DNA of 64,000 bases from Octopus vulgaris (taxonomy: Eukaryota). The position numbers and the translations under genes are program-made. Below, piece after piece: positions 3,688-64,000 of this stretch. How positions within the stretch are numbered: the first letter of the stretch is position 1; the number at the start of each line of letters is the position of its first letter. A model generated the notes under the pieces. It saw only the letters and a list, made by a program, of their open reading frames with translations. It had not been told where the DNA came from and searched no databases. Location: assembly GCA_951406725.2 (NCBI GenBank), contig OX597819.1, positions 44,888,001 through 44,952,000 of the forward strand. Reading direction: 5' to 3'.

Positions 3688-3751
<64 letters not shown>

Positions 3752-3752
3752 C

Positions 3753-3908
3753 ATGCACGATGCATGATGCATGATGCATGAATGAATGGATGAATGGATA
3801 GATGTATACATATATGATCATATATACATATATATATGTGTGTGTGTGTGTGAGCGATCAGGATGACTTTTTTCCCATTTTGAAGGATTACGTAAACCAG
3901 ATAAACAT
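3753..3908 (+). repeat. 156-bp segment duplicated at 4937-5092
   Basis: Near-identical direct repeat that includes the unique sequence gagcgatcaggatgacttttttcccattttgaaggattacgtaaaccagataaacat. Confidence 0.9.
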
Positions 3909-4886: not shown

Positions 4887-4942
<56 letters not shown>

Positions 4943-5117
4943 GATGCATGATGCATGATGCATGAATGAATGGATGAATGGATAGATGTATACATATATG
5001 ATCATATATACATATATATATATGTGTGTGTGTGTGAGCGATCAGGATGACTTTTTTCCCATTTTGAAGGATTACGTAAACCAGATAAACATGTGAAGGA
5101 AATCTAATTCTCGCCGA

Positions 5118-5187
5118 CAACTATGATTGTCACACGCTGACGAGAGGTCAATACCTCGAAACTCGAGTCCGTGTGTATCATAAGTTG
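5118..5187 (+). ncRNA. Canonical type I hammerhead ribozyme; predicted cleavage after C5169 (GUC)
   Basis: cacacg-CTGACGA-GAGGT caat ACCTC-GAAA-CTCGAG-TC-cgtgtg. Core and stems are perfect. Stem I extends past an internal loop (caactatgat/atcataagttg), and stem III is the palindrome ACTCGAGT. Confidence 0.9.
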
Positions 5188-5385
5188 AAGACGGGAAGGA
5201 TGACTTCCCTTTGCAAATACTGACAGGACACAGAAAGTGTGTCTATGGCCAGCTGGAGGAGTGTGTCCTCCTGGGGCTAAAAACTACAGTAGCATCCACC
5301 CTTAGGGGTAGCCATATTGAGATGGCAAATATACGTCACGATGTGTTACCGCTACTGTATATAACTCACTTTGATATTTATCATT

Positions 5386-5434
<49 letters not shown>

Positions 5435-9458: not shown

Positions 9459-9669
9459 TTGTGTGTCTGTGTTTGTCCCCCTAGCATTGCTTGACAACCG
9501 ATGCTGTTGTGTTTTTGTCCCCGTTACTTAGCGGTTCGGCAAAAGAGACCGATAGAATAAGTACTGGGCTTTCAAAAGAATAAGTCCCAGAGTCGAGTTG
9601 CTCGATTAAAGGTGGTGCTCCAGCATGGCTGCAGTCAAATGACTGAAACAAGTAAAAGAGTAAAAGAGT
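9233..9669 (+). mobile_element. SINE family 1, near full length with a duplicated 5' end
   Basis: ggcgcaggagtgg occurs twice; CORE-like ggcacctcgggcaagtgtcttct; internal (TA)n(TG)n; 3' module present. Confidence 0.88.
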
Positions 9670-10122
9670 ATATATACGTACATACGTCATTATTTAGTTT
9701 ATTTCAAGATTCTTTGTGAATTGAGAAAGAACCGGTTCTAACCTTGACCCAAGGATCCTTCATTGGAACTTCAACATCAACAATAGGCTAATTTTTTGTA
9801 TATATGTATATGTGTATGTATGTATGTATGTATGTATGTATGTATGTATGTATGTATGTATGTATGTATGTATTATCATGCATGTAGTTGCATATCCAGT
9901 CATGGACATGCATATTTAAATGATAAATTTCTTGAAAGTTTTACAGATTTTTGCAGTTCCAGTGATAGAATGGATCTGTAGTCTTCGAACTAGCTTTCTC
10001 CTTTCTAGTTTTGAGAAGCCTAATATCTCAAGATTGTTATTTAGGTAGTGTGTTACATATCCCAGGCCCTCGATAATTACAGGTATAAAGCTGAACTTTT
10101 ATTCTGGATAGAGTAACTGCAG

Positions 10123-20827: not shown

Positions 20828-21244
20828 AGGCGGGTTTCTCTCGATTTCCATCTGCTAAATCCGCTCACAAGGGTTTGGTTATAGAAGGTAGCTGCCCATA
20901 TTACCACGCAGTGAGGTTTAGTCCGGAACCATATAGTTGAGAAGCAAGCTTCTTACTACACAGTGACACCTGCGCCTGTTGCTAGGCCTACGCCTGAATT
21001 CTTTTATTCTTTTATCCTTTTACTTGTTTCAGTCATTTGACTGTGGTCATGCCGGTGCACCACCTTTTTAGTCGAGCAAATCGACCCCAGGACTTATTCT
21101 TTGTATGACTAGTACTTATTCTACCGCTAAGTTACGGGGACGTAAACACACCAGCATCGGTTGGCAAGCGATGTTAGGGGGACAAACACAGACACACAAA
21201 CACATACACATATATATGCATATATATATATGCATATATATATA

Positions 21245-21309
<65 letters not shown>

Positions 21310-21472
21310 GACGGACTTCTTTCAGTTTCTGTCTACCAAATCCACTCAAAAGGCTTTGGTCGGCCCGAGGCTATAGTAGAAGAGACTTACCCAAAGTGCC
21401 ACACAGTGGGGCTGAACCCGGAACCATGTGGTTGGTAAGCAAGCTACTTACCACATAGCCACTGCTGCGCCT
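20828..21472 (-). mobile_element. SINE family 1: old 5' half (20828-20977) plus a near-full copy (21001-21472)
   Basis: Reverse complement of head, CORE-like segment, microsatellite and 3' module. Confidence 0.85.
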
Positions 21473-22019
21473 AATGTTCATGAAAATTTAGAAACTGATG
21501 TTTCACGTATATTTGTTTGTCGGAGACACTCGAAGCATTTATTGATAGTATTGAATAAACGGAAAAAGTAGATGGAAGAAAAAAAGAAAGAGCGGAAGAG
21601 AGAAAGAGAGAAAGAGAGAGGGGACAGAGACAGAGAAAGAGAAGAAGAGGGAGAGGGGGAGTTTATATATTGAAGTATGAAGGAGTTATATTTGGCATGA
21701 ATGGAAATAGGCGTTAATTGATGAATGTAAAATTTTGCCCTCAAGCATAGGCCCAATATTTTTTTCTTTCGATAATTCATTACATTCTTTATGATAACCG
21801 GATAATTAACTTTAGTTAAAAGAAAATTAGTCATACGCTTGATCATCAATGCAGGTAAGTATAGTGATTCGCTTATTACGAATAGAGCAAGGAATGAAGA
21901 AACTATGCTTCGTTGACACAACGTCTCGTAACACTGAAACATACCTGGAGTTGTTGCCCCTACTTGCTAAAATAAATTTTATTTGGCACTGCTTAAGTAT
22001 TATTATTTAGTTAGATAAA

Positions 22020-22895
22020 AGCAGCGAGTAGGCGCAATCGCTATCATGCCGGGCAAAACGCTTATCGGCATTTCGTCTATCATGACGTTCTGAGTTAAAA
22101 TTCTGTCGAGTTAGACTTGGTCTTTCATCCTTTCGGGTTACGATAAATTAAACTGCATTCAAACACTGGAGTCGATATAATCAACTACTCCTCTCTCCAT
22201 CAAATTTAGGGCCTTGTGCTTATAGTAGTAATGCACGGCAGCGAGATGGCAGAATCGCTGCCACGCTGGGCTAAATGCTTAAGATCAAATTCCACCGAGG
22301 TTGACTTTTCGTTAGATCATTTAGGCCTAGATAATTAGGCCTAGATAATCAGGCCTAGATAATTAGGCCTAGATAATCAGTTAAAACACTTCGGTTGATG
22401 TAATCGACTGTCCCACGCCCTGTAAATTTCGAACCTTGTTCCGATAGTAGAAAGTATTATTTAATTAGAGAAAAGTGGAAGGCGGCGAGCTGGCAGAATC
22501 GTTAGCACACCGGGCGAAATGCGTAACCGTAATTCGACTGCCGTTACGTTCTGAGTTCAAATTCCGCCGAGGTCGACTTTGCCTTTCATCCTTTCGGGGT
22601 CGATTAAATAAGTACCAGTTACGCTCTGGAGTCGATGTAATCGACTTAATCCGTTTGTCTGTCTTTGTTTGTCCTCTCTGTATTTAGCCCCTTGTGGGTA
22701 GTAAAGAAATAGGTATTTCGTCTGCCGCTACGTTCTGAGTTCAAATTCAACCGAGGTCGACTTTGCCATTCTTCCTTTCGGGGTCGATTAAATGAGTACC
22801 AATTATGCACTGGGGTCGATGTAATCGACTTAATTCCTTTATCTGTCCTTGTTTGTCCCCTCTATGTTTAGCCTCATGTGGGCAATAAATAAATA
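22020..22895 (+). mobile_element. Head-to-tail array of four SINE family 2 units
   Basis: Units start at ~22020, 22236, 22481 and 22712 (headless). The second unit contains a 14-bp tandem repeat (aggcctagataaty)x4. Confidence 0.85.
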
Positions 22896-24547: not shown

Positions 24548-25806
24548 CAAGGTGCGTTAGGTATTTGAGAACATAAATTTTGGCTGGCATTGTTGCATTT
24601 TTTGCTAACTCTGTATCATCTTTGAGAAAATAATAATGGCGGCCCCTCAGCTTACTCAAGAAAGAAAGAGGCATGCTGTTATTGTGGTTATAAAGGCTGA
24701 GCATAGCGATTTAGAAATATCTCATTTTTTAAATGTTCCCAGATCTTTCGTCTACAAAATTTTTAAAGAGCAAGAGGTTGAAGATGGAAAAGTATCACCA
24801 GTATCAAAGCATAAAAAGCATTCTAAACGCTCTGAAATCATCAGAAAACCTGAATTTATCCAGCAAGTTCAACAGACCGTTGATTACAATCCTAGAAAGT
24901 CCATGAGATCAATTGCAAAAGATCTCCATGTGTCAGAAGGAACAGTCAGAAATGTTGTCCCCGAAAACATTAGATAGAAAGCCTAATATGTTGAGGAAAT
25001 GTCAATTTGTCAGAAAAAGCAAAAAAAAAATAATTACACCAGATCTAAAATGCTTTTAAACAATCAGAAAAATCCAGCAGAAGATTTGATTTGGTATTTC
25101 TCAAAGAAGAAAAACTTCGACCATGATCAAAATGTTAACAGAAGAAATTTCAGATGGTTATGTGCAGACCCTTCTCAACTTCCAATTCTTATACATACAA
25201 AATTTCCTGAAACTGTCATGGTTTTAGGGGCTGTCAGCAATGAAGGACATGTGATGCCTCCTTACTTCTTTCTACAAGACCTTAGAGTTAACTCTGCCAC
25301 CTACATTGATGTCCTAGAAATAATTGTTAAGCCCAGAATAGACACTTTATGCAATGGAAAGCTACATATGTTTCAGTAAGACTATTCAGTAACACACATG
25401 GCTCTAGTAACACAGGAATGGATGGCTGAAAATTTTCATGATCACATAACCCGTAAGATTTTACCTTTCTAATTCCCTAGAACTCAACCCATTGGACTAT
25501 TACATGTGGAGCGTTGTTGAGAGAGAGGTCAATGCACACGCCCATAACACAAAAAATTCTTTGAAAGCTACCATAGTCAGAGTAATGTCCAAAATGAACC
25601 AGGAACACTTGATTCAAGTATATAGATGATTTAGATCTCATATGGAAACAGTTGTTGAAGCTGAAGGTGACTTTATTGAATAACATTATAGAAAGGAGAC
25701 TTATTTTTATCCTCATAGCATTTTTTGATAAATAAAGTTATTATCTGTTAATATATATCTGTTTTTTATAAACATAAATATGTCTTCAAATGTCTTACGC
25801 ACCCTG
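24548..25806 (+). mobile_element. Full-length decayed DD37D (maT) Tc1/mariner transposon, 1259 bp
   Basis: 28-bp imperfect TIRs (caaggtgcgttaggtatttgagaacata / tatgtcttcaaatgtcttacgcaccctg), with TA on the left flank and a transposase pseudogene inside. Confidence 0.92.
24636..25683 (+). pseudogene. maT/DD37D transposase pseudogene
   Basis: ORFs 24636-24977 (HTH, NPRKSMRSIAKDLHVS) and 24999-25379 (VMVLGAVSNEG, MFQ*D). The continuation NSLELNPLDYYMWSVVE..EAEGDFIE gives 37 residues between the last two Asp once a frameshift is corrected. Confidence 0.9.
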
Positions 25807-27367: not shown

Positions 27368-27869
27368 CGTTGTGTATAATGTAAACAGAGTTAGCGGTTA
27401 TAATAACCGACTAAGGGATAAAATATCCCTATATATTATCGGTATCCGTTACCCGTATTCTCCCTGGGCATTGCTGTGGAGGCACACCATACACGTAGAA
27501 AGCAGGTAACAACAAGACAAACAAGAGTTTATGAAGAACCAATGCAAATAATCAGAAAATGGAGAAAACTTCAGATTAACCAACACATCGATTAGACCGC
27601 ATTTATAGCTTATTTTGTAATACATAGCACGATATAACAAATAGGTGACGTAATATATCTTACGGCCGTTTTTGATCGTTGCCAAAATGGTGTCTATAAA
27701 TAAAAGCGAGAATAAAGTTCTTCATTTTCATAGGACATTCGAATTAAGGCATGGAGCTTCATCAGAGTAAAAGAACAAGAGAATATATATATATATATAT
27801 ATGTATATATGCAGAGCTCACCGTTAACACACATCCATGCATATACATATGCAATATTAGAATACCTAA

Positions 27870-28075
27870 AGGTGGCGAGCTGGCAGAAACGTTGGCACGC
27901 CGGGCGAAATGCTGTCTACATGTTCTGAGTTCAAATTCCGCCGAAGTCGACCTTGCCTTTTATCCTTTCGGAGTCGATAAATTAGCACCAGCTGCGTACT
28001 GATGGTCGATATAATCGACTGCCCCCCTCCACCTCTAAAAAAATGTCGGGCCTTGTGCCAAAAGTAGAAAAGAAT
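27870..28075 (+). mobile_element. SINE family 2
   Basis: ggtggcgagctggcagaaacg..gagttcaaattccgccg..gggccttgtgcc..agaaaag. Confidence 0.85.
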
Positions 28076-28309
28076 ATTTCAATACCTAACAAATTTTTTC
28101 AAAGGGAACATCAAATATTATGCTGCAAATTACGTACATGTACAAAAATATATATACATACATAGGCACATACACACATACATTATATATACATATATAC
28201 ATATGTGTGTGTGTGTGTATAGTTCAGATTTTTAGAAAATCTAAGACGAAGACAGGCGTAGGAACACCAAACTAGTGTATTAGTTTGACGCTCGGAAAAA
28301 ATGGAAAAA

Positions 28310-36291: not shown

Positions 36292-36404
36292 CTATTTTAA
36301 AGCGCTTGAGTGTTGTAATGATAATTTTCGGAGTCGCAAGAGGAGGAAATGATGGATGTTAGAGAAGGAAATTGCATGTCATAAGTATATAACAATATGG
36401 AAAA

Positions 36405-36665
36405 TCCTTTCTACGGAAGGTACAAGGCCTGAAATTTTGGGGGAGGGGACTAGTCGATTACGTCGACCCCAGTGTTTCACTGGTACTTATTTTATAGAGC
36501 CCGAAGGATGAAATGTAAAGTTGACATCGAAGGCATTAGAACTCAGAACGTAGCGACGTGCGAAATACCTATTTCTTTACTACCCGCAAGGGGCTAAACA
36601 CAGAGGGAACAAACAAGGACAGACAAACGGATTAAGTCGATTACATCGACCCCAGTGTGTAACTG
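36405..36665 (-). mobile_element. Nested SINE family 2 pair
   Basis: Has the same tail-to-body junction (aaagaaata-ggtatttcg) as at 22712. Confidence 0.8.
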
Positions 36666-37227
36666 GCATCATATTGAAAGACTTCAGGCAAAAATCTTAC
36701 CTCCTCATTTATATGACTGTCCCAATCGATATAAACGTATTTGTCTAGACCTACCAAAAACTGAGCAAGTAGTCTTTAGTCAAATAAATGAAGCCTAGGA
36801 CTTGCTGATGGTTCAGTTTATCATCCCACGAGAGATTAAAAGTAATAGTGGCGAAATTTGAACTCAGAAGAGTCCACCGATTCTACCAACCGAGGATGTA
36901 CATTGATGTGTCTGACAATGTGAAAAGACGAGATATAACTGCGCACAAATAGCTATAATCTTTTAATCAGACTAGAAATTTTCTGATCTAACTACAAACA
37001 CATGATATTGTCAGCTGACATGCTAGAAAAGAAGCAAGAAAAAAAAACAACTTTCCGTTGAACCAAATACTATAGTCTTAAAACAAAGGAAGAACACATT
37101 AGATAATTCCGACCTTAATATACTACGTCTAAAACTAAATAGATTGGATATTGTCACGGTTAAATCACCTGTGATTATAAGTCTGCTTGATCGCAGCTGA
37201 CCTGGAACTAATCAACGTATTTATCAA

Positions 37228-39420: not shown

Positions 39421-40006
39421 TTTATATATATAAATAAAACGCTATACATGCTAGAAAGAGACTCGTGGCAGTATGGTTAAGATAGAGTATCCAATGAATT
39501 GCATGACACTTTCCCTCATTTTATTCAAAACTGTGATTATTGACATTTGTTATAGTTTTCGGGCGAGTAAGGAATAATTCCATACACATAATTTCACTTA
39601 AACTCTGCAGATGGAGTCCCCCAACAGAATGCATTTTAATGTCACGGCCACGATATAAAACATACGCATACAAAAACAAGGTGTAATTAAAATATGAATA
39701 CGAAACATAAATTGGCAAACCATAACGCACGATTTAGAAACCATCTTGAATAATGGGTCAAAGAACCACATCGGTTTTGTCAGATACCAGTCCTGGTTAA
39801 GTAAATCATGCACACAATTTTGTTAAAGTCGTTTGTCACATCTATTGCTGACAAGGCTGTGAAACGAACACCAGCCTGTTCCTAGAATGTGTTACTGGCG
39901 AGGTCACCTCATAGGTCTTCCACAGGTTATTTTTGGAATTTATTTTGTGCTGTCTTTTCTACTTGCCGTCAGTCAAGCTTTACCACGCCTATTTAGACTC
40001 AAATTA

Positions 40007-40237
40007 AGGCGGTGAGCTGGCAGAAACGTTAGCACGCCGAGCGAAATGCGTAGCCGTATTTCGTCTGCCGCTACGTTGTGAGTTCAAATCCCGCGAGGTC
40101 GACTTTACCTTTCATCTTTTCGTGGTCGATAAATTAAGTACCAGTTACGCACTGGGGTCGACATAATCGACTTAATCCCTTTGTCTGTCCTTGTTTGTCC
40201 CTTCTGTGTTTAGCCCCTTGTGGGTAGTAAAGAAATA
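40007..40237 (+). mobile_element. Young full-length SINE family 2 with a 17-bp TSD
   Basis: TSD tatttagactc(a/c)aatta at 39990-40006 and 40238-40254. Confidence 0.92.
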
Positions 40238-41069
40238 TATTTAGACTCCAATTACTCCTTCTCATAGCAAGGCAATGTATTGGTATTCTGTGATAACACC
40301 AAAGCTTTGAACCAGCCCGTGCAAATTTCAACAAAGAAACTGTAAGTGGGTGAAGTTTTTATATAAGAAAAATTATGGGATTTTTACATAATAAATCGAA
40401 TTGAAAGTCACTTCTCAGAGTAATTACCAGGTTTTGATTAACAAATGAGTCATGAAATTGTGGCAACCTGTATTACAAGTTTAGGTTTCGTAATTGAAGT
40501 TTAAGCAAGTCGTCTATTCGCGGTAAATTTCCCAGCCATTATCGAATTCAACGGGCAAATATTGCTTATCTGCAGATTGGAAAGACTGCACTGCCTACAG
40601 GTAGAGGCTGAAGTAGTTTGAACATTTCAAGAAAAGTATCCCTGTGATTTTGAAGCAACTTAAGTAATTAGATCAGTGACTACAAAATACATCACTTCTG
40701 CTCGATCAGTCGCTTTACACTGTGACGTTTAACCTTCAGGTTGTTCAAGTTCAGGTGACCACCAATGTTGGGAAATTGTGCTGTCACTAGATTAAGACGA
40801 GTTTAACTTTTCACTTTACAGTTTTCTTTTGAAAGTAGTTTTCGGTACTCAGAGCAAATCCTAAAATAAGAATGACGGCTCCCGGTAAAAACCATCGAAA
40901 GGATCACTAGTTTTTTTTTTTTTTTTGGTTGATCACCTTCCAGTAATCTTATTTCATACACCTTACTGTTTCCTTCCAGTACAATTTCCCTCAACTTGTC
41001 CTCCTTCATAATCAACTGGTTATCCTTAATGATTTCATCGACCTGTTGCTTAATCTTATCACACCGACA

Positions 41070-41282
41070 TTCTTTTCTACTCTAGGCACAAAGCCCGAAA
41101 TTTTGAGTATAGGGTTAGTCGATTAGATCGATCCAGTACCCAAGTGGTATTTAATTTATCGACCCCAAAATGATGAAGGGAAAAGTGGACCTCGGCAGAA
41201 TTTGAATTCAAAACGTAAAGACAGACGAAATACCATTAAGTATTTCGCCAGCCGTGCTAACGTTTCTTCCAGCACGCCGCCT
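41070..41282 (-). mobile_element. SINE family 2
   Basis: Reverse complement of the full head, central domain and tail. Confidence 0.8.
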
Positions 41283-46392: not shown

Positions 46393-46796
46393 ATTGTTCG
46401 GCTGTGGAAGGACTGTCGTAAGTTACATAAAGTATCTATTCATGTCTTCCATGATCTAGCTCGAATCTATTGAGACGATGTAATTGTTGCCGTTTTTACT
46501 ATTTTATCTATTCAGACAGATGTTTCCAACGCTTTACCTTATTTTTGTTTTTGTTTTTTGTTTTCATTGTACAACTTCTCTTTGTGTATGATTTCCTTTT
46601 CGTTTGGGGATTTGTTTGTTTATATTACAATTTCAGCTACCCCACTGGAGTTAGAACCCTTTCCTACACTCATCTGAGGCAGTCATCTTCACTGATTTTG
46701 GAGCACCTGATTCATGGATTTCCTTATTCTCTCTTTTGATTACGCTACCTTTGAATTCCTTCGGAGTATTTTGTTGTTTTTTTCATCTTAATGTAT

Positions 46797-47009
46797 ACTC
46801 TTTTACTTGTTTCAGTCATTTGACTGGGGCCATGCTGGAGCACCGCCTTTAGTCGAGCAAATCGACCCCAGGACTTATTCTTTGTAAGCCTACTACTTAT
46901 TCTATCGGTCTCTTTTGCCGAACCGCTAAGTTACGGGGACGTAAACACACCAGCATCGGTTGTCAAACGATGTTGGGGAGGACAAACAAAGACAAACAAA
47001 CAGGCACAC

Positions 47010-47096
<87 letters not shown>

Positions 47097-47276
47097 TACA
47101 CACACATATAAATATACATATATACGACGGGCTTCTTTCAGTTTCTGTCTACCAAATCCACTCATAAGGCTTTGGTCGGCCCGAGGCTATAGTAGAAGTC
47201 ACTTGTCCAGGGTGCCACACAGTGGGACTGAACCCGGAACCATGTGTTTGGTAAGCAGGCTACTTACCACACAGCC
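46797..47276 (-). mobile_element. Young near-full-length SINE family 1
   Basis: Well-preserved reverse complement with all modules. Confidence 0.9.
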
Positions 47277-47654
47277 AATTTACACATAGGCCTATGTATA
47301 AATATTGCGAATAAGTATTTAACTAAAATTGGTAACACAGTTTCTCTAGCCTGGTAATGATGAAAATATTCAGATATTCAGAAGCACCATTAGAGATGAA
47401 CCAGGATATACACAACGAGCACAAACTGACTCAAACTCGCTCCTACACATGTCAAAATTAAACAGAGAATACAACCTGGCAACCACACCAGACTCTGAGG
47501 GTGGAGTCTTCGACTTGGCCTGAGCATGGACTCAAACTCAAATGAAATGAAAGTCTTTTAGTACTAAAAACAGCAAGAAAATAAAGAAACTTTTTCTCGC
47601 AAGACGTTGTTAATAAATAGCTTCTACGTGAAATGCTGTGAAACGTGGTCGTTC

Positions 47655-53075: not shown

Positions 53076-53727
53076 AGGCAATAAAAGTTGATTTTTTGCA
53101 AATATTTGTGACTTAGCTGGAGTTTTCTATTGCTTTTCCGTGCACATGTATAAGCTTCTGTTAGGTGTTTCATTCATTATTTAAATTTATTACACCGCTT
53201 TTCTCTGAATTCCTATGCAACATTGTAATATGGAAAGGAATACAAATGCCCAATACAAATGCCCAATACAAATGCCCTATTATTGCGTTGCAATGTAATC
53301 TGTACCGTGTAGTGTTGCAAGATCTGCAGTTTATGCTATATTACAGATACTTTCCGAAAATTATTTGTATGTTAAAGTCATAGAACGTCATTAAAGAGCA
53401 CTGAATGATCATGAACAAGATGTGGGAGATTTCGTAGAAAATCTATTAGTTCAATCGTTGTGAAAAGTGTAAAGTCTGACATTTCAGTCAGCAACACATG
53501 CTTCAACCGGACAAATATTTTTTCCTCTTCTCATGACTATTAAATTATCGGTGTTATATGCTTTCTCCTTTAGAGTAATACTTGCCGACGCATGATCTTA
53601 CAAATTTTCTTGTATTCAGTACTACAACTCTGATGAAAGGATATTGTTGAAATACTTCCATTCACGAACTTGCCCACTCCTCAAGCTCTCTTTCTTGATC
53701 TCTTCACAGAGTATTGATAAACGGTTT

Positions 53728-53958
53728 GGTGATGAGCTGGCAGAATCGTTAGCACGCCGGGCGAAATGCGTAGCCGTATTTCGTCTGCCGTTTCGTTCTG
53801 AGTTCAAACTCCACCGAGGTCGACTTTGCCTTTCATCCTTTCGGAGTCGATAAATTAAGTACCAGTTACGCACTGGGGTCGATATGATCGACTTAATACC
53901 TATGTCTGTCCATGTTTGTCCCCTCTATGTTTAGCCCCTGGTGGGTAATAAAGAAATA
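53728..53958 (+). mobile_element. Young SINE family 2 with a ~10-bp TSD
   Basis: ggtttggtga flanks both ends (53722-53731 and 53959-53968). Confidence 0.9.
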
Positions 53959-54013
53959 GGTTTGGTGAGGATGAGATATGAACACACGCACGCGCACGCT
54001 CGATCGATCGATC

Positions 54014-61931: not shown

Positions 61932-62184
61932 ATCAATTTCGGGATTAATCCTATGGATTCTTCCCTTTTCAGTAGAAAATACGATAAGAAATAAATGAAA
62001 TATTTACACGCACCCATGGAAAAAAAGCATAAGCAAGTGTCATGTGTACACATAAGAGTTACGTGTACTCATGATTCTTGCTTATGCTTTTTTCCATGGG
62101 TGCGTGTAAGTATTTAATTCATTTCTTATCGTATTTATTTTCTACTGAAGAGGGAAGAATCCATAGGATTAATCCGAAATTGAT
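61932..62184. mobile_element. Foldback / Mutator-like MITE (near-complete palindrome)
   Basis: ~120-bp inverted arms meet at ~62056; flanking 11-bp direct repeats tcaatatcgac / tcaatatagaa. Confidence 0.7.
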
Positions 62185-62376
62185 TCAATATAGAAATAAC
62201 GAACTTTAAAAAAAAAAAATTCTGTTGGCTAGCTTTCCTCGATTTCAGCACGATGTGTATTTATAGTGAATATATAAGGAAATGTGGAAATTGACGATTT
62301 AAATTCTGTTCTCAGCATATTGGCATAGAAATAATTTTACTTTTGCCCTTATTTATAAGTTATATATATACATATA

Positions 62377-63637
62377 CATGGTATGGTGAATAGATTGTCG
62401 TATAAATTACGCAAAAATGAAACTAACACTGACATCTCATTTTGACAGATATATGTACCAAATTTACATAAAAATTTCTTAAAATACCAAAGAATAAATT
62501 TGTTCAATAAAATCGCCATTGATTTCAACCACGGCCTCCAGACGCCTTCAGAATCTCCTGACACTCTTCTGGACGTGCTGCTTGTTTAAGTTGATGAATA
62601 CTGTCATAAACCTTGCCTTCAGTTCATCTTTGGTGTTACAAGCAGTTTTGTTGGTCTCCTACTCAACTGCGCTCCACGCATAATAATCAAGAGTGTTGCA
62701 GTCTGAGGTGTTAGATGGTGATGCGGTCGCACAAACTGTCTGACAGCCATGACTGGGCTCTGCTGCTTGTGTGGCATGGTACAAATTCCTATTTCCAGAC
62801 ATAGAGTCTTCCTGCAACCACCTTCTTGACCCAGGGCAGCACTACCTCCTCCAGGCCCTTAATGTGAGCCTCCGTGTTGAGTCTGAGGTCGTGTGGGAAG
62901 ATTAATGGAGACATAACATCACCATCGCTAGTGATCACTCCAAACACTATGATGTTAACTGGATATTTGATTTTTCTCAGTCTTAGTGCATATTCTGGAG
63001 ACACAGCAAGCCAAAGGTTGTTCTGTTTGTTCACGATGTGATCCTGGCAGAAATATTTCTCGTCTTAGAAACATCAAAGCATGTTCGATTGGAGGGGATG
63101 GAGGATGCTTCAGTTCGTTCAAAAGTTTCGTAGCACGGTCTTTTCTCTTGTCCTTGATGACTTGGGATAAAAATTGTCCCTACCCATCTTGTATGAGGAA
63201 TACCGAATGTCTCCATACACTACCTGCCTAATAAGAATCTCACACACTCTCATAGCCCTGGCGATGAACCTGATTGACATGGAAGGATCGTTGTCAATCA
63301 TGCCCTTAATTTTTTTGTCAGAACGATCACTGAGATTTTCGAGGTGCCGTACCTTCGTAATCACCATTAGACTCATCCAACTCATTCCCAATCCTCTGCA
63401 CTCTCCTCAGACTGACACGCAGTCACTCTGAAATGTTTGTATTGGAGCTTCTGACGTGAATACCAAGCAGTACAGCATGTCGTATCCAATTTGTTTGGCA
63501 GAATGAATTGCGTCATGGTGCTGTTTTTCTCACAGACGCTGCCCAACTGACCGTACTATAGTGTGTAGTCGACAAAATCAAACACAAACAATGTGCATGC
63601 TCGAAAATTCAGAAAATGAAATGGTGATATCACACTC

Positions 63638-63672: not shown

Positions 63673-63678
<6 letters not shown>

Positions 63679-63846
63679 GGGGAAGGAGGATGCTTCAGTT
63701 CGTTCAAAAGTTTCGTAGCACGGTCTTTTCTCTTGTCCTTGATGGCTTGGGATAAACATTATCCCTATCCATCTTGTATGAGGAATACTGAATGTCTCCA
63801 TACACTACCTGCCTGATAAGAATCTCACACACTCCCATATCCCTGG
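63673..63846 (-). repeat. Local duplicate of internal transposase segment 63088-63261
   Basis: Direct repeat with few substitutions, starting right after a (TA)n run. Confidence 0.85.
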
Positions 63847-64000
63847 GATGTATGTACATCAATGAATACATAAGTGTGTGCACGCGTGTTTGTGCGCTTT
63901 TTATTTCATATATGTGTATATTAGTATGTGAGTATATACACGCATGCACACACACACATGTATATATATATGGGGGGGGGGGAATAGAGAGACACATAGA

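Follow-up and report, generated by a model that had tools for sequence, protein, structure and literature searches.

Positions 5092-5385 (+) of a 64,000-nt stretch of Octopus vulgaris DNA, referred to as the window, are probably a dispersed non-LTR retrozyme copy. The complete unit of 353 nt would be expressed as tandem transcripts, cleave itself after residue C17 of a hammerhead ribozyme and circularise. The copy is solo, permuted and, judged by family depth and contig ends, partial (294 of 353 nt). Its GC content is 44.6%, compared to 34.9% in the window.

The hammerhead was recognised by model RF00163 (Hammerhead_1) of Rfam, which aligned over its whole length to 5131-5175 with 32.2 bits and an E-value of 4.6e-6. 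A scan of the whole window at the gathering score returned no matches, because 32.2 bits is 1.8 below the gathering score of 34 for RF00163, a curated cut-off of that one model and not a definition of the motif. Pairing was checked base by base for the core, helices I to III, the palindrome and distal helix I. Together with the Rfam match, the pairing table delimits a type I hammerhead of the canonical kind, in which helix I is extended, at 5118-5187 (+). In helix I, 5131-5136 pair with 5170-5175 (6/6 Watson-Crick pairs), followed by a 3x1 internal loop with UGU (5128-5130) opposite U5176, and by the distal part, in which 5118-5127 and 5177-5187 form 10 further pairs with predicted probabilities of 0.49-1.0. 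The catalytic core comprises CUGACGA (C3 to A9, 5137-5143), with N7 being C or U across the repeat family, GAAA (G12-A13-A14-A15.1, 5158-5161) and GUC (5167-5169). An earlier sequence-only reading of this DNA had described the same core, a perfect 6-bp stem I, its extension past an internal loop and an 8-nt palindrome, and all of these were confirmed. For helix II (5144-5157) it had proposed five base pairs, and all five can form (5/5), but four pairs and a six-nucleotide loop (5148-5153), with the fifth, U-A, pair as an option, give the canonical geometry and are preferred. Helix III, two base pairs and a 4-nt loop, lies within the palindrome at 5161-5168, which is identical to its own reverse complement.

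The CUGANGA, GAAA and UH elements are thus placed at a three-helix junction with helix I open, the arrangement of a canonical type I hammerhead. For canonical metazoan type I motifs, PMC4209133 gives, in its accessible part, 6 bp for helix I, 4 bp for helix II and 1-2 bp with a small palindromic loop for helix III, and all these sizes are found here. By alignment to RF00163, C17 corresponds to C5169, and self-cleavage is predicted 3' of this base. The unpaired U5176, the seventh base after the cleavage site (U1.7), and A5153, with which loop II terminates if taken as six bases, are by analogy the predicted partners of a Hoogsteen contact, since in full-length hammerheads of solved structure U1.7 and loop II interact in this way (PMC11875169, in the part available). 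The predicted self-duplex of the palindrome has -10.7 kcal/mol, and in such a model the palindrome would permit a dimeric hammerhead. According to the same accessible part of PMC4209133, a helix III that short hinders cleavage of the monomer, while a second copy nearby leads to an active dimer. The earlier expectation that any plus-strand transcript would be cut was therefore overstated: helix III has 2 bp, the copy is solo, and such motifs often need a dimer partner.

A motif arising by chance at 5137 could be ruled out. In 100 dinucleotide shuffles, both strands considered, the structural descriptor matched 0.01 times per 64 kb in its loose and not at all in its strict form, and the real window contains two loose matches, at 5137 and 62145. 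The second one (62145-62190, +) is probably due to chance, with no Rfam hammerhead at E-values up to 5 and a fold z-score of -0.19. A long near-perfect inverted repeat with arms of about 35 bp and inner pairing, foldback or MITE-like, is present at about 62000-62113, showing sub-threshold matches to microRNA families on both strands.

Compared to RF00163, the seed of which we take to be Schistosoma Sm-alpha-like, the octopus motif shares the full-length match, the helix sizes, the AAUA end of loop II and the palindromic helix III. It differs in loop II, beginning with U-C, in the helix I bulge, which is UGU instead of UAC or UAU, and in the score of 32.2 bits. For architectural comparison, metagenome contigs were searched. 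A family-specific pattern gave no matches there, while a generic pattern with core and loop II fixed and the helices free yielded 45 matches in 42 loci, which are mostly from two samples and not independent. Among the 45, helix II has 4/4 pairs in 38, the palindrome is present in 39 and U1.7 in 40. Enough flank was available for 42 of the motifs, of which 29 have a perfect helix I; in these, U1.7 is found in 29/29 and a UAC or UAU bulge in 28/29, and the four distal helix I pairs average 3.6 compared to 0.9-1.8 in slid controls. A 3x1 loop and 4/4 distal pairs are shared by the window motif, whereas its bulge is UGU. By alignment, the 42 loci were ruled out as relatives, only one being aligned to the element, weakly and over the ribozyme only (E 0.064). 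Three of the contigs, L003, L020 and L023, carry inverted pairs of canonical type I hammerheads, and L013 has a GIY-YIG sequence near one (1665-2027). Inverted pairs with GIY-YIG nearby are an arrangement described for Penelope-like elements (PLEs), and these contigs are presumably from animal DNA.

Fold z-scores were -2.97 for 5110-5195, -3.89 for 5093-5345 and -4.63 for 5092-5385. In the minimum-energy fold of the monomer (ViennaRNA, which ignores tertiary contacts) helices II and III are absent, and it lies 5.9 kcal/mol below the active fold. Further hairpins are predicted downstream (5193-5278, +) at 5193-5209, 5226-5244 and 5255-5271, the last within 5246-5278. The first and the last had already been noted from the letters, and both exist, but the hairpin at 5193-5209, present in the fold of 5170-5385, is missing from the minimum-energy fold of the whole element.

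To what extent the element belongs to a repeat family became apparent from public sequencing runs. All or part of 5092-5385 is present in 20 of 24 listed runs, which come from 11 studies and nine organism codes; none of these is recorded as RNA, which is no indication of expression either way, and the DNA or RNA status of the runs named here is a guess. Four were aligned to 5037-5390 (354 bases) at 85% likeness, X1, which may be from the source sample, and X11, both guessed to be DNA, and X15 and X17, guessed to be RNA. In X1, 3,578 contigs match the 354 bases, in identity bins of 605, 925, 1,518 and 530. Summed depth in X1, which is not a copy number, is 96,000-1,700,000 over 5097-5384 versus 67-160 over the flank at 5037-5084, three to four orders of magnitude higher and indicating a family size in the order of thousands; the family is thus multicopy, as expected of a retrozyme, and the copy here is solo. 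Both guessed-RNA runs aligned contain the family (2/2), but lack cover over the flank 5037-5084 and are not usable for transcription of the locus. The ends of the copy follow from the same data: depth climbs at 5085-5096 and drops at 5385, and 5092 is where the match starts for contigs from X11, X15 and X17. The element therefore spans 294 bp at 5092-5385, in place of the 5093-5345 proposed from sequence. Within the window, neither a second nor a tandem copy of 5092-5385 is found.

Record 9 of X11 is the window sequence without any difference over 218 nt, and record 19 of X17 has two differences in these 218 nt. In X1, by contrast, a letter different from the window copy accounts for about 70% of the depth at four positions, so that this copy belongs to a young subfamily. 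The earlier view of a recent element is in accordance with the X1 depth and contig identity, which show a young family of high copy number. Family variation is described by 27 variant rows, nine within the hammerhead and 18 downstream. None of the nine affects an invariant core base or breaks a pair; three are unpaired, three keep the pair and three would be restored by a listed partner variant if in phase. The helix II variants 5144/5157 and 5145/5156 would accordingly be compensatory if in phase. Among the 18 downstream rows, five keep pairs, six are unpaired and seven break predicted pairs. Thus, family variation backs the downstream hairpins only in part, and the fold of this region is less certain. 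A-to-I editing was ruled out as the source of variants, since A>G changes are also present in the DNA-like run X1. From loose contig ends at 5189-5198, 5261-5269 and 5301-5309, diverged subfamilies are indicated, alike in the middle of the element (5193-5310) and different around the ribozyme. Their number is at least two or three.

The size of the complete unit was deduced from record 19 of X17 (a 383-nt contig at depth 23.6 from a guessed-RNA run), which contains 5281-5385, 58 other letters and then 5092-5309, with the same 30 letters at both ends. In assemblies of this kind, a closed contig repeats k-1 = 30 letters. The identical ends therefore indicate that this record closes, and the unit amounts to 294 + 58 + 1 inserted base = 353 nt. 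The same linker precedes 5092 in X11 and X15 (one difference in the 30 letters shown), and in X15 family sequence continues beyond 5385. The unit is head-to-tail or circular, and a closed contig fits circular RNA, tandem DNA or a tandem transcript; the closure is one contig in one of the four runs aligned, from a run with organism code H, compared to A for the best DNA run. Among the joints listed for X1, none goes back to the start of the unit, and the pieces listed are at most 135 nt long, a further 173 loose ends falling outside this listing. What had been suggested from sequence, a retrozyme monomer, would thus apply to the 353-nt head-to-tail or circular unit, which is of retrozyme size, but not to the window copy, in which 58 of 353 nt are missing and which is permuted across the cleavage site. 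Within the linker, which the window copy lacks, loose ends of X11 and X15 show a TATA-like word, TATAAG, starting about 10 nt 5' of position 5092; speculatively, it could be an internal promoter starting transcription just 5' of the ribozyme.

At its 3' side, the element is directly followed by a (TA)n tract at 5386-5433 (Tandem Repeats Finder, 5374-5433; the family match stops at 5385), the presumed target and primer site. To the left of the cassette, another (TA)n tract was detected by the same program at 4890-4938. In record 25 of X17 (depth 4.1), family sequence likewise gives way to an AT-rich simple repeat, at about 5381-5385. On the left side, a feature beyond the earlier observations was revealed by sequence self-comparison. 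Positions 4905-5092 (+), 188 bp, are 98.4% identical to 3721-3908 (+) at a spacing of 1184, and this first, presumed source copy starts in a (TA)n tract. The duplicate ends exactly at the left edge of the element with a junction overlap of 1 nt. A flanking terminal repeat of the element is not present within the window, nor is there a clear target-site duplication; (TA)n flanks and the local duplicate are found instead. Templated insertion, by target-primed reverse transcription at (TA)n that broke off at 5092 and switched to DNA close by, is the simplest single event to explain the duplication, but the same picture could result if two haplotypes had been joined via (TA)n during assembly, or if (TA)n tracts had undergone unequal crossover following an insertion with deletion. 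A second local duplication, 63088-63266 and 63673-63850 (179 bp, 94% identity), is located beside an (AT)n tract, and local duplications of that sort may be frequent in the genome or the assembly.

Overall, the element resembles the metazoan non-LTR retrozymes of coral, mussel and axolotl described by Cervera and de la Pena 2020 (PMC7229834, as far as accessible) in its high copy number, its GC content, the highly self-paired fold predicted for it, the head-to-tail closure seen in one contig, and a non-coding unit that carries a canonical type I hammerhead. Retrozymes measure 150-450 bp with less than 50% GC in that source, those of mussel 350-390 bp with about 5,000 hammerheads, values compatible with the 353-nt unit and with 44.6% GC over 294 nt. 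It differs in its cephalopod host, octopus or cephalopods being absent from the main text of PMC7229834, and in the solo, partial and permuted copy with (TA)n flanks and a 188-bp duplicate in place of a clear target-site duplication. The cycle proposed there, in the part available, consists of a tandem transcript, self-cleavage, host ligation and an autonomous reverse transcriptase, probably of a PLE. Monomer cleavage in that source is about 0.8 per min for coral, 0.1 per min for mussel and 6-22% in an hour for axolotl.

Applied to octopus, tandem source arrays would give rise to multimeric RNA, which hammerheads would cut into monomers, either as monomers or as dimers via the 8-nt palindrome, and a host ligase would circularise the products. 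A Penelope-like reverse transcriptase-endonuclease would then prime at a nicked (TA)n tract and copy the RNA leftwards, beginning at about 5385. If linear and cleaved, a monomer would run from 5170 to 5169, yet the copy spans this site, with 78 nt before and 216 nt after it. Because the intact hammerhead is in the middle of the copy, a circle or an uncleaved multimer would have served as template in this mechanism; judged by the junction itself, tandem DNA would also be suitable. Synthesis would have come to a halt at 5092, and the 188-bp duplicate would stem from a switch of template to DNA lying 1.18 kb upstream. In the literature on templated junctions searched, nothing specific to retrozymes was found. 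Because 58 nt of the unit and a tandem partner are missing, the solo copy itself is probably a dead end. Dispersed monomers are frequent in retrozyme families (Li et al. 2026, bioRxiv 10.64898/2026.07.22.740005, accessible part), and in the same source only one of nine predicted Xenopus dimer elements was cleaved in vitro. A preference for (TA)n is reported for some PLE clades in the available part of PMC8557442. O. vulgaris has 190 Penelope-like families making up 6.83% of the genome, of which 31 are recently active with 336 insertions (PMC13282606, accessible part). Counted against a retrozyme are the closure by one contig, the missing joint among those listed for X1, the lack of a tandem copy in the window, the fold cost of 5.9 kcal/mol, the UGU bulge, the breaks of downstream pairs in 7/18 rows, the cleavage of only 1/9 Xenopus dimer elements, and an autonomous partner not being found in the window frames scanned.

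Concerning the surroundings, the window has 35% GC and contains many microsatellites and interspersed repeats. From 670 stop-to-stop frames of at least 45 amino acids, 478 remained after filtering for complexity, of which 38 in repeats were set aside and 440 scanned with Pfam. The only matches were a transposase-type helix-turn-helix fragment at 24609-24974 (+) and one sub-threshold hit. The fragment, matching HTH_23 and CENP-B_N and followed by a next frame at 24999-25379, has seven homologues, of which three, named from Octopus sinensis or O. bimaculoides, are 66-77% identical and four are unnamed, in keeping with an octopus host. Reverse transcriptase or GIY-YIG domains were not matched in the 440 frames scanned out of the 478 filtered ones of the window, although short exons would escape, and the frames scanned over 5092-5385 gave no Pfam match. 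An autonomous PLE at the locus was therefore rejected, no such frame being among the 440 scanned. SINE-like repeats belong to at least two abundant interspersed families with copies 70-90% identical, at 1644-2085, 22001-22895, 27869-28078, 36389-36666, 39990-40242, 41067-41282 and 53720-53961, and also at 1187-1341, 9509-9684, 21000-21473 and 46789-47278. They presumably resemble octopus SINEs. The element itself was rejected as a tRNA-derived SINE: no A or B box pattern is contained in 5092-5385 and ARAGORN predicted no genes, both for the 294 nt present in the window.

Three other explanations were considered. Unlikely, in our estimate, is a pLTR (terminal repeat) of an autonomous PLE, truncated at its 5' side, the 353-nt closure then reflecting tandem pLTRs and free circular RNA not being formed. 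Type I hammerheads do occur in PLE pLTRs (PMC4209133), PLE insertions are mostly truncated at the 5' side and carry one terminal repeat, and of 57 Xenopus retrozyme families 24 are homologous to known transposable elements, nearly all PLE termini (both bioRxiv 10.64898/2026.07.22.740005; both sources in their accessible parts). The window element is like the pLTR hammerheads of these two sources and PMC8557442, each as far as available, in having a type I motif near an element end, 5' truncation, a microsatellite target and possibly dimeric cleavage. The (TA)n target and the share of PLEs in the O. vulgaris genome (190 families, 6.83%) fit as well, and in the unrelated comparison set, 3 of 42 loci have two inverted canonical hammerheads, and another one has a GIY-YIG frame nearby. 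However, metazoan PLE hammerheads are minimal variants with 7-8 bp in helix II and 4-5 bp in helix I according to the accessible part of PMC4209133, whereas the motif here is canonical. Sequence 5' of 5092 returns to 5385 within 58 nt, and not into a reading frame; the unit thus closes on itself at 353 nt, with no reverse transcriptase or GIY-YIG frame attached, and no PLE frame was found among the window frames scanned. The pLTR and retrozyme readings do not exclude each other, since retrozymes have been proposed to derive from pLTRs.

It appears rather improbable that the element is a piece of a hammerhead-bearing satellite copied at the DNA level, by break repair or microhomology template switching, without an RNA intermediate. 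The 188-bp local duplicate, joined with 1 nt shared, and (TA)n on either side resemble the outcome of repair synthesis, copying of DNA out of a tandem array would likewise yield a permuted partial unit, and O. vulgaris has 80 satellite families (PMC13282606, accessible part). On the other hand, the exit of X17 record 25 at about 5381-5385 into an AT-rich repeat hints that the 3' end is fixed, as would be the case in target-primed reverse transcription, and the catalytic core kept across subfamilies implies selection at the RNA level in the family. A single-copy regulatory hammerhead, domesticated by the host and cleaving a host pre-mRNA at this locus, is hardly credible: the motif is perfect and solo in the window, but family depth is very high with several subfamilies, no host protein domain was found nearby in the frames scanned, from which short exons would escape, and the insertion looks young, with no differences over 218 nt to the X11 contig.

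In the literature searched, where coverage of subscription papers and repeat databases was poor, neither a hammerhead nor a retrozyme was found to be described from octopus, including the accessible parts of PMC13282606, PMC8967140, PMC10886601 and PMC8557442; in the 2026 repeat annotation of O. vulgaris (PMC13282606), hammerhead or ribozyme does not occur in the main text or supplement. To the known retrozymes of corals, mussels and amphibians, the octopus family adds a probable cephalopod one; such an extension was to be expected and is not surprising. Of more use is how the solo copy is built: the cleavage junction is intact, the 3' end lies in (TA)n, and local DNA is duplicated at the 5' junction. 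This anatomy makes the proposed PLE-driven, circle-templated insertion testable via the ends of all copies. As a bolder and tentative proposal, more doubtful than the retrozyme assignment itself, octopus may harbor an active, abundantly expressed family of 353-nt ribozyme circRNAs, with thousands of solo copies sharing a 3' end in AT-rich microsatellites, crossing the ligated cleavage junction and ending in local template switches, as the genomic footprint of Penelope-driven reverse transcription on circular RNA. If true, this would be a direct footprint of a step in the animal retrozyme cycle which is still only proposed.
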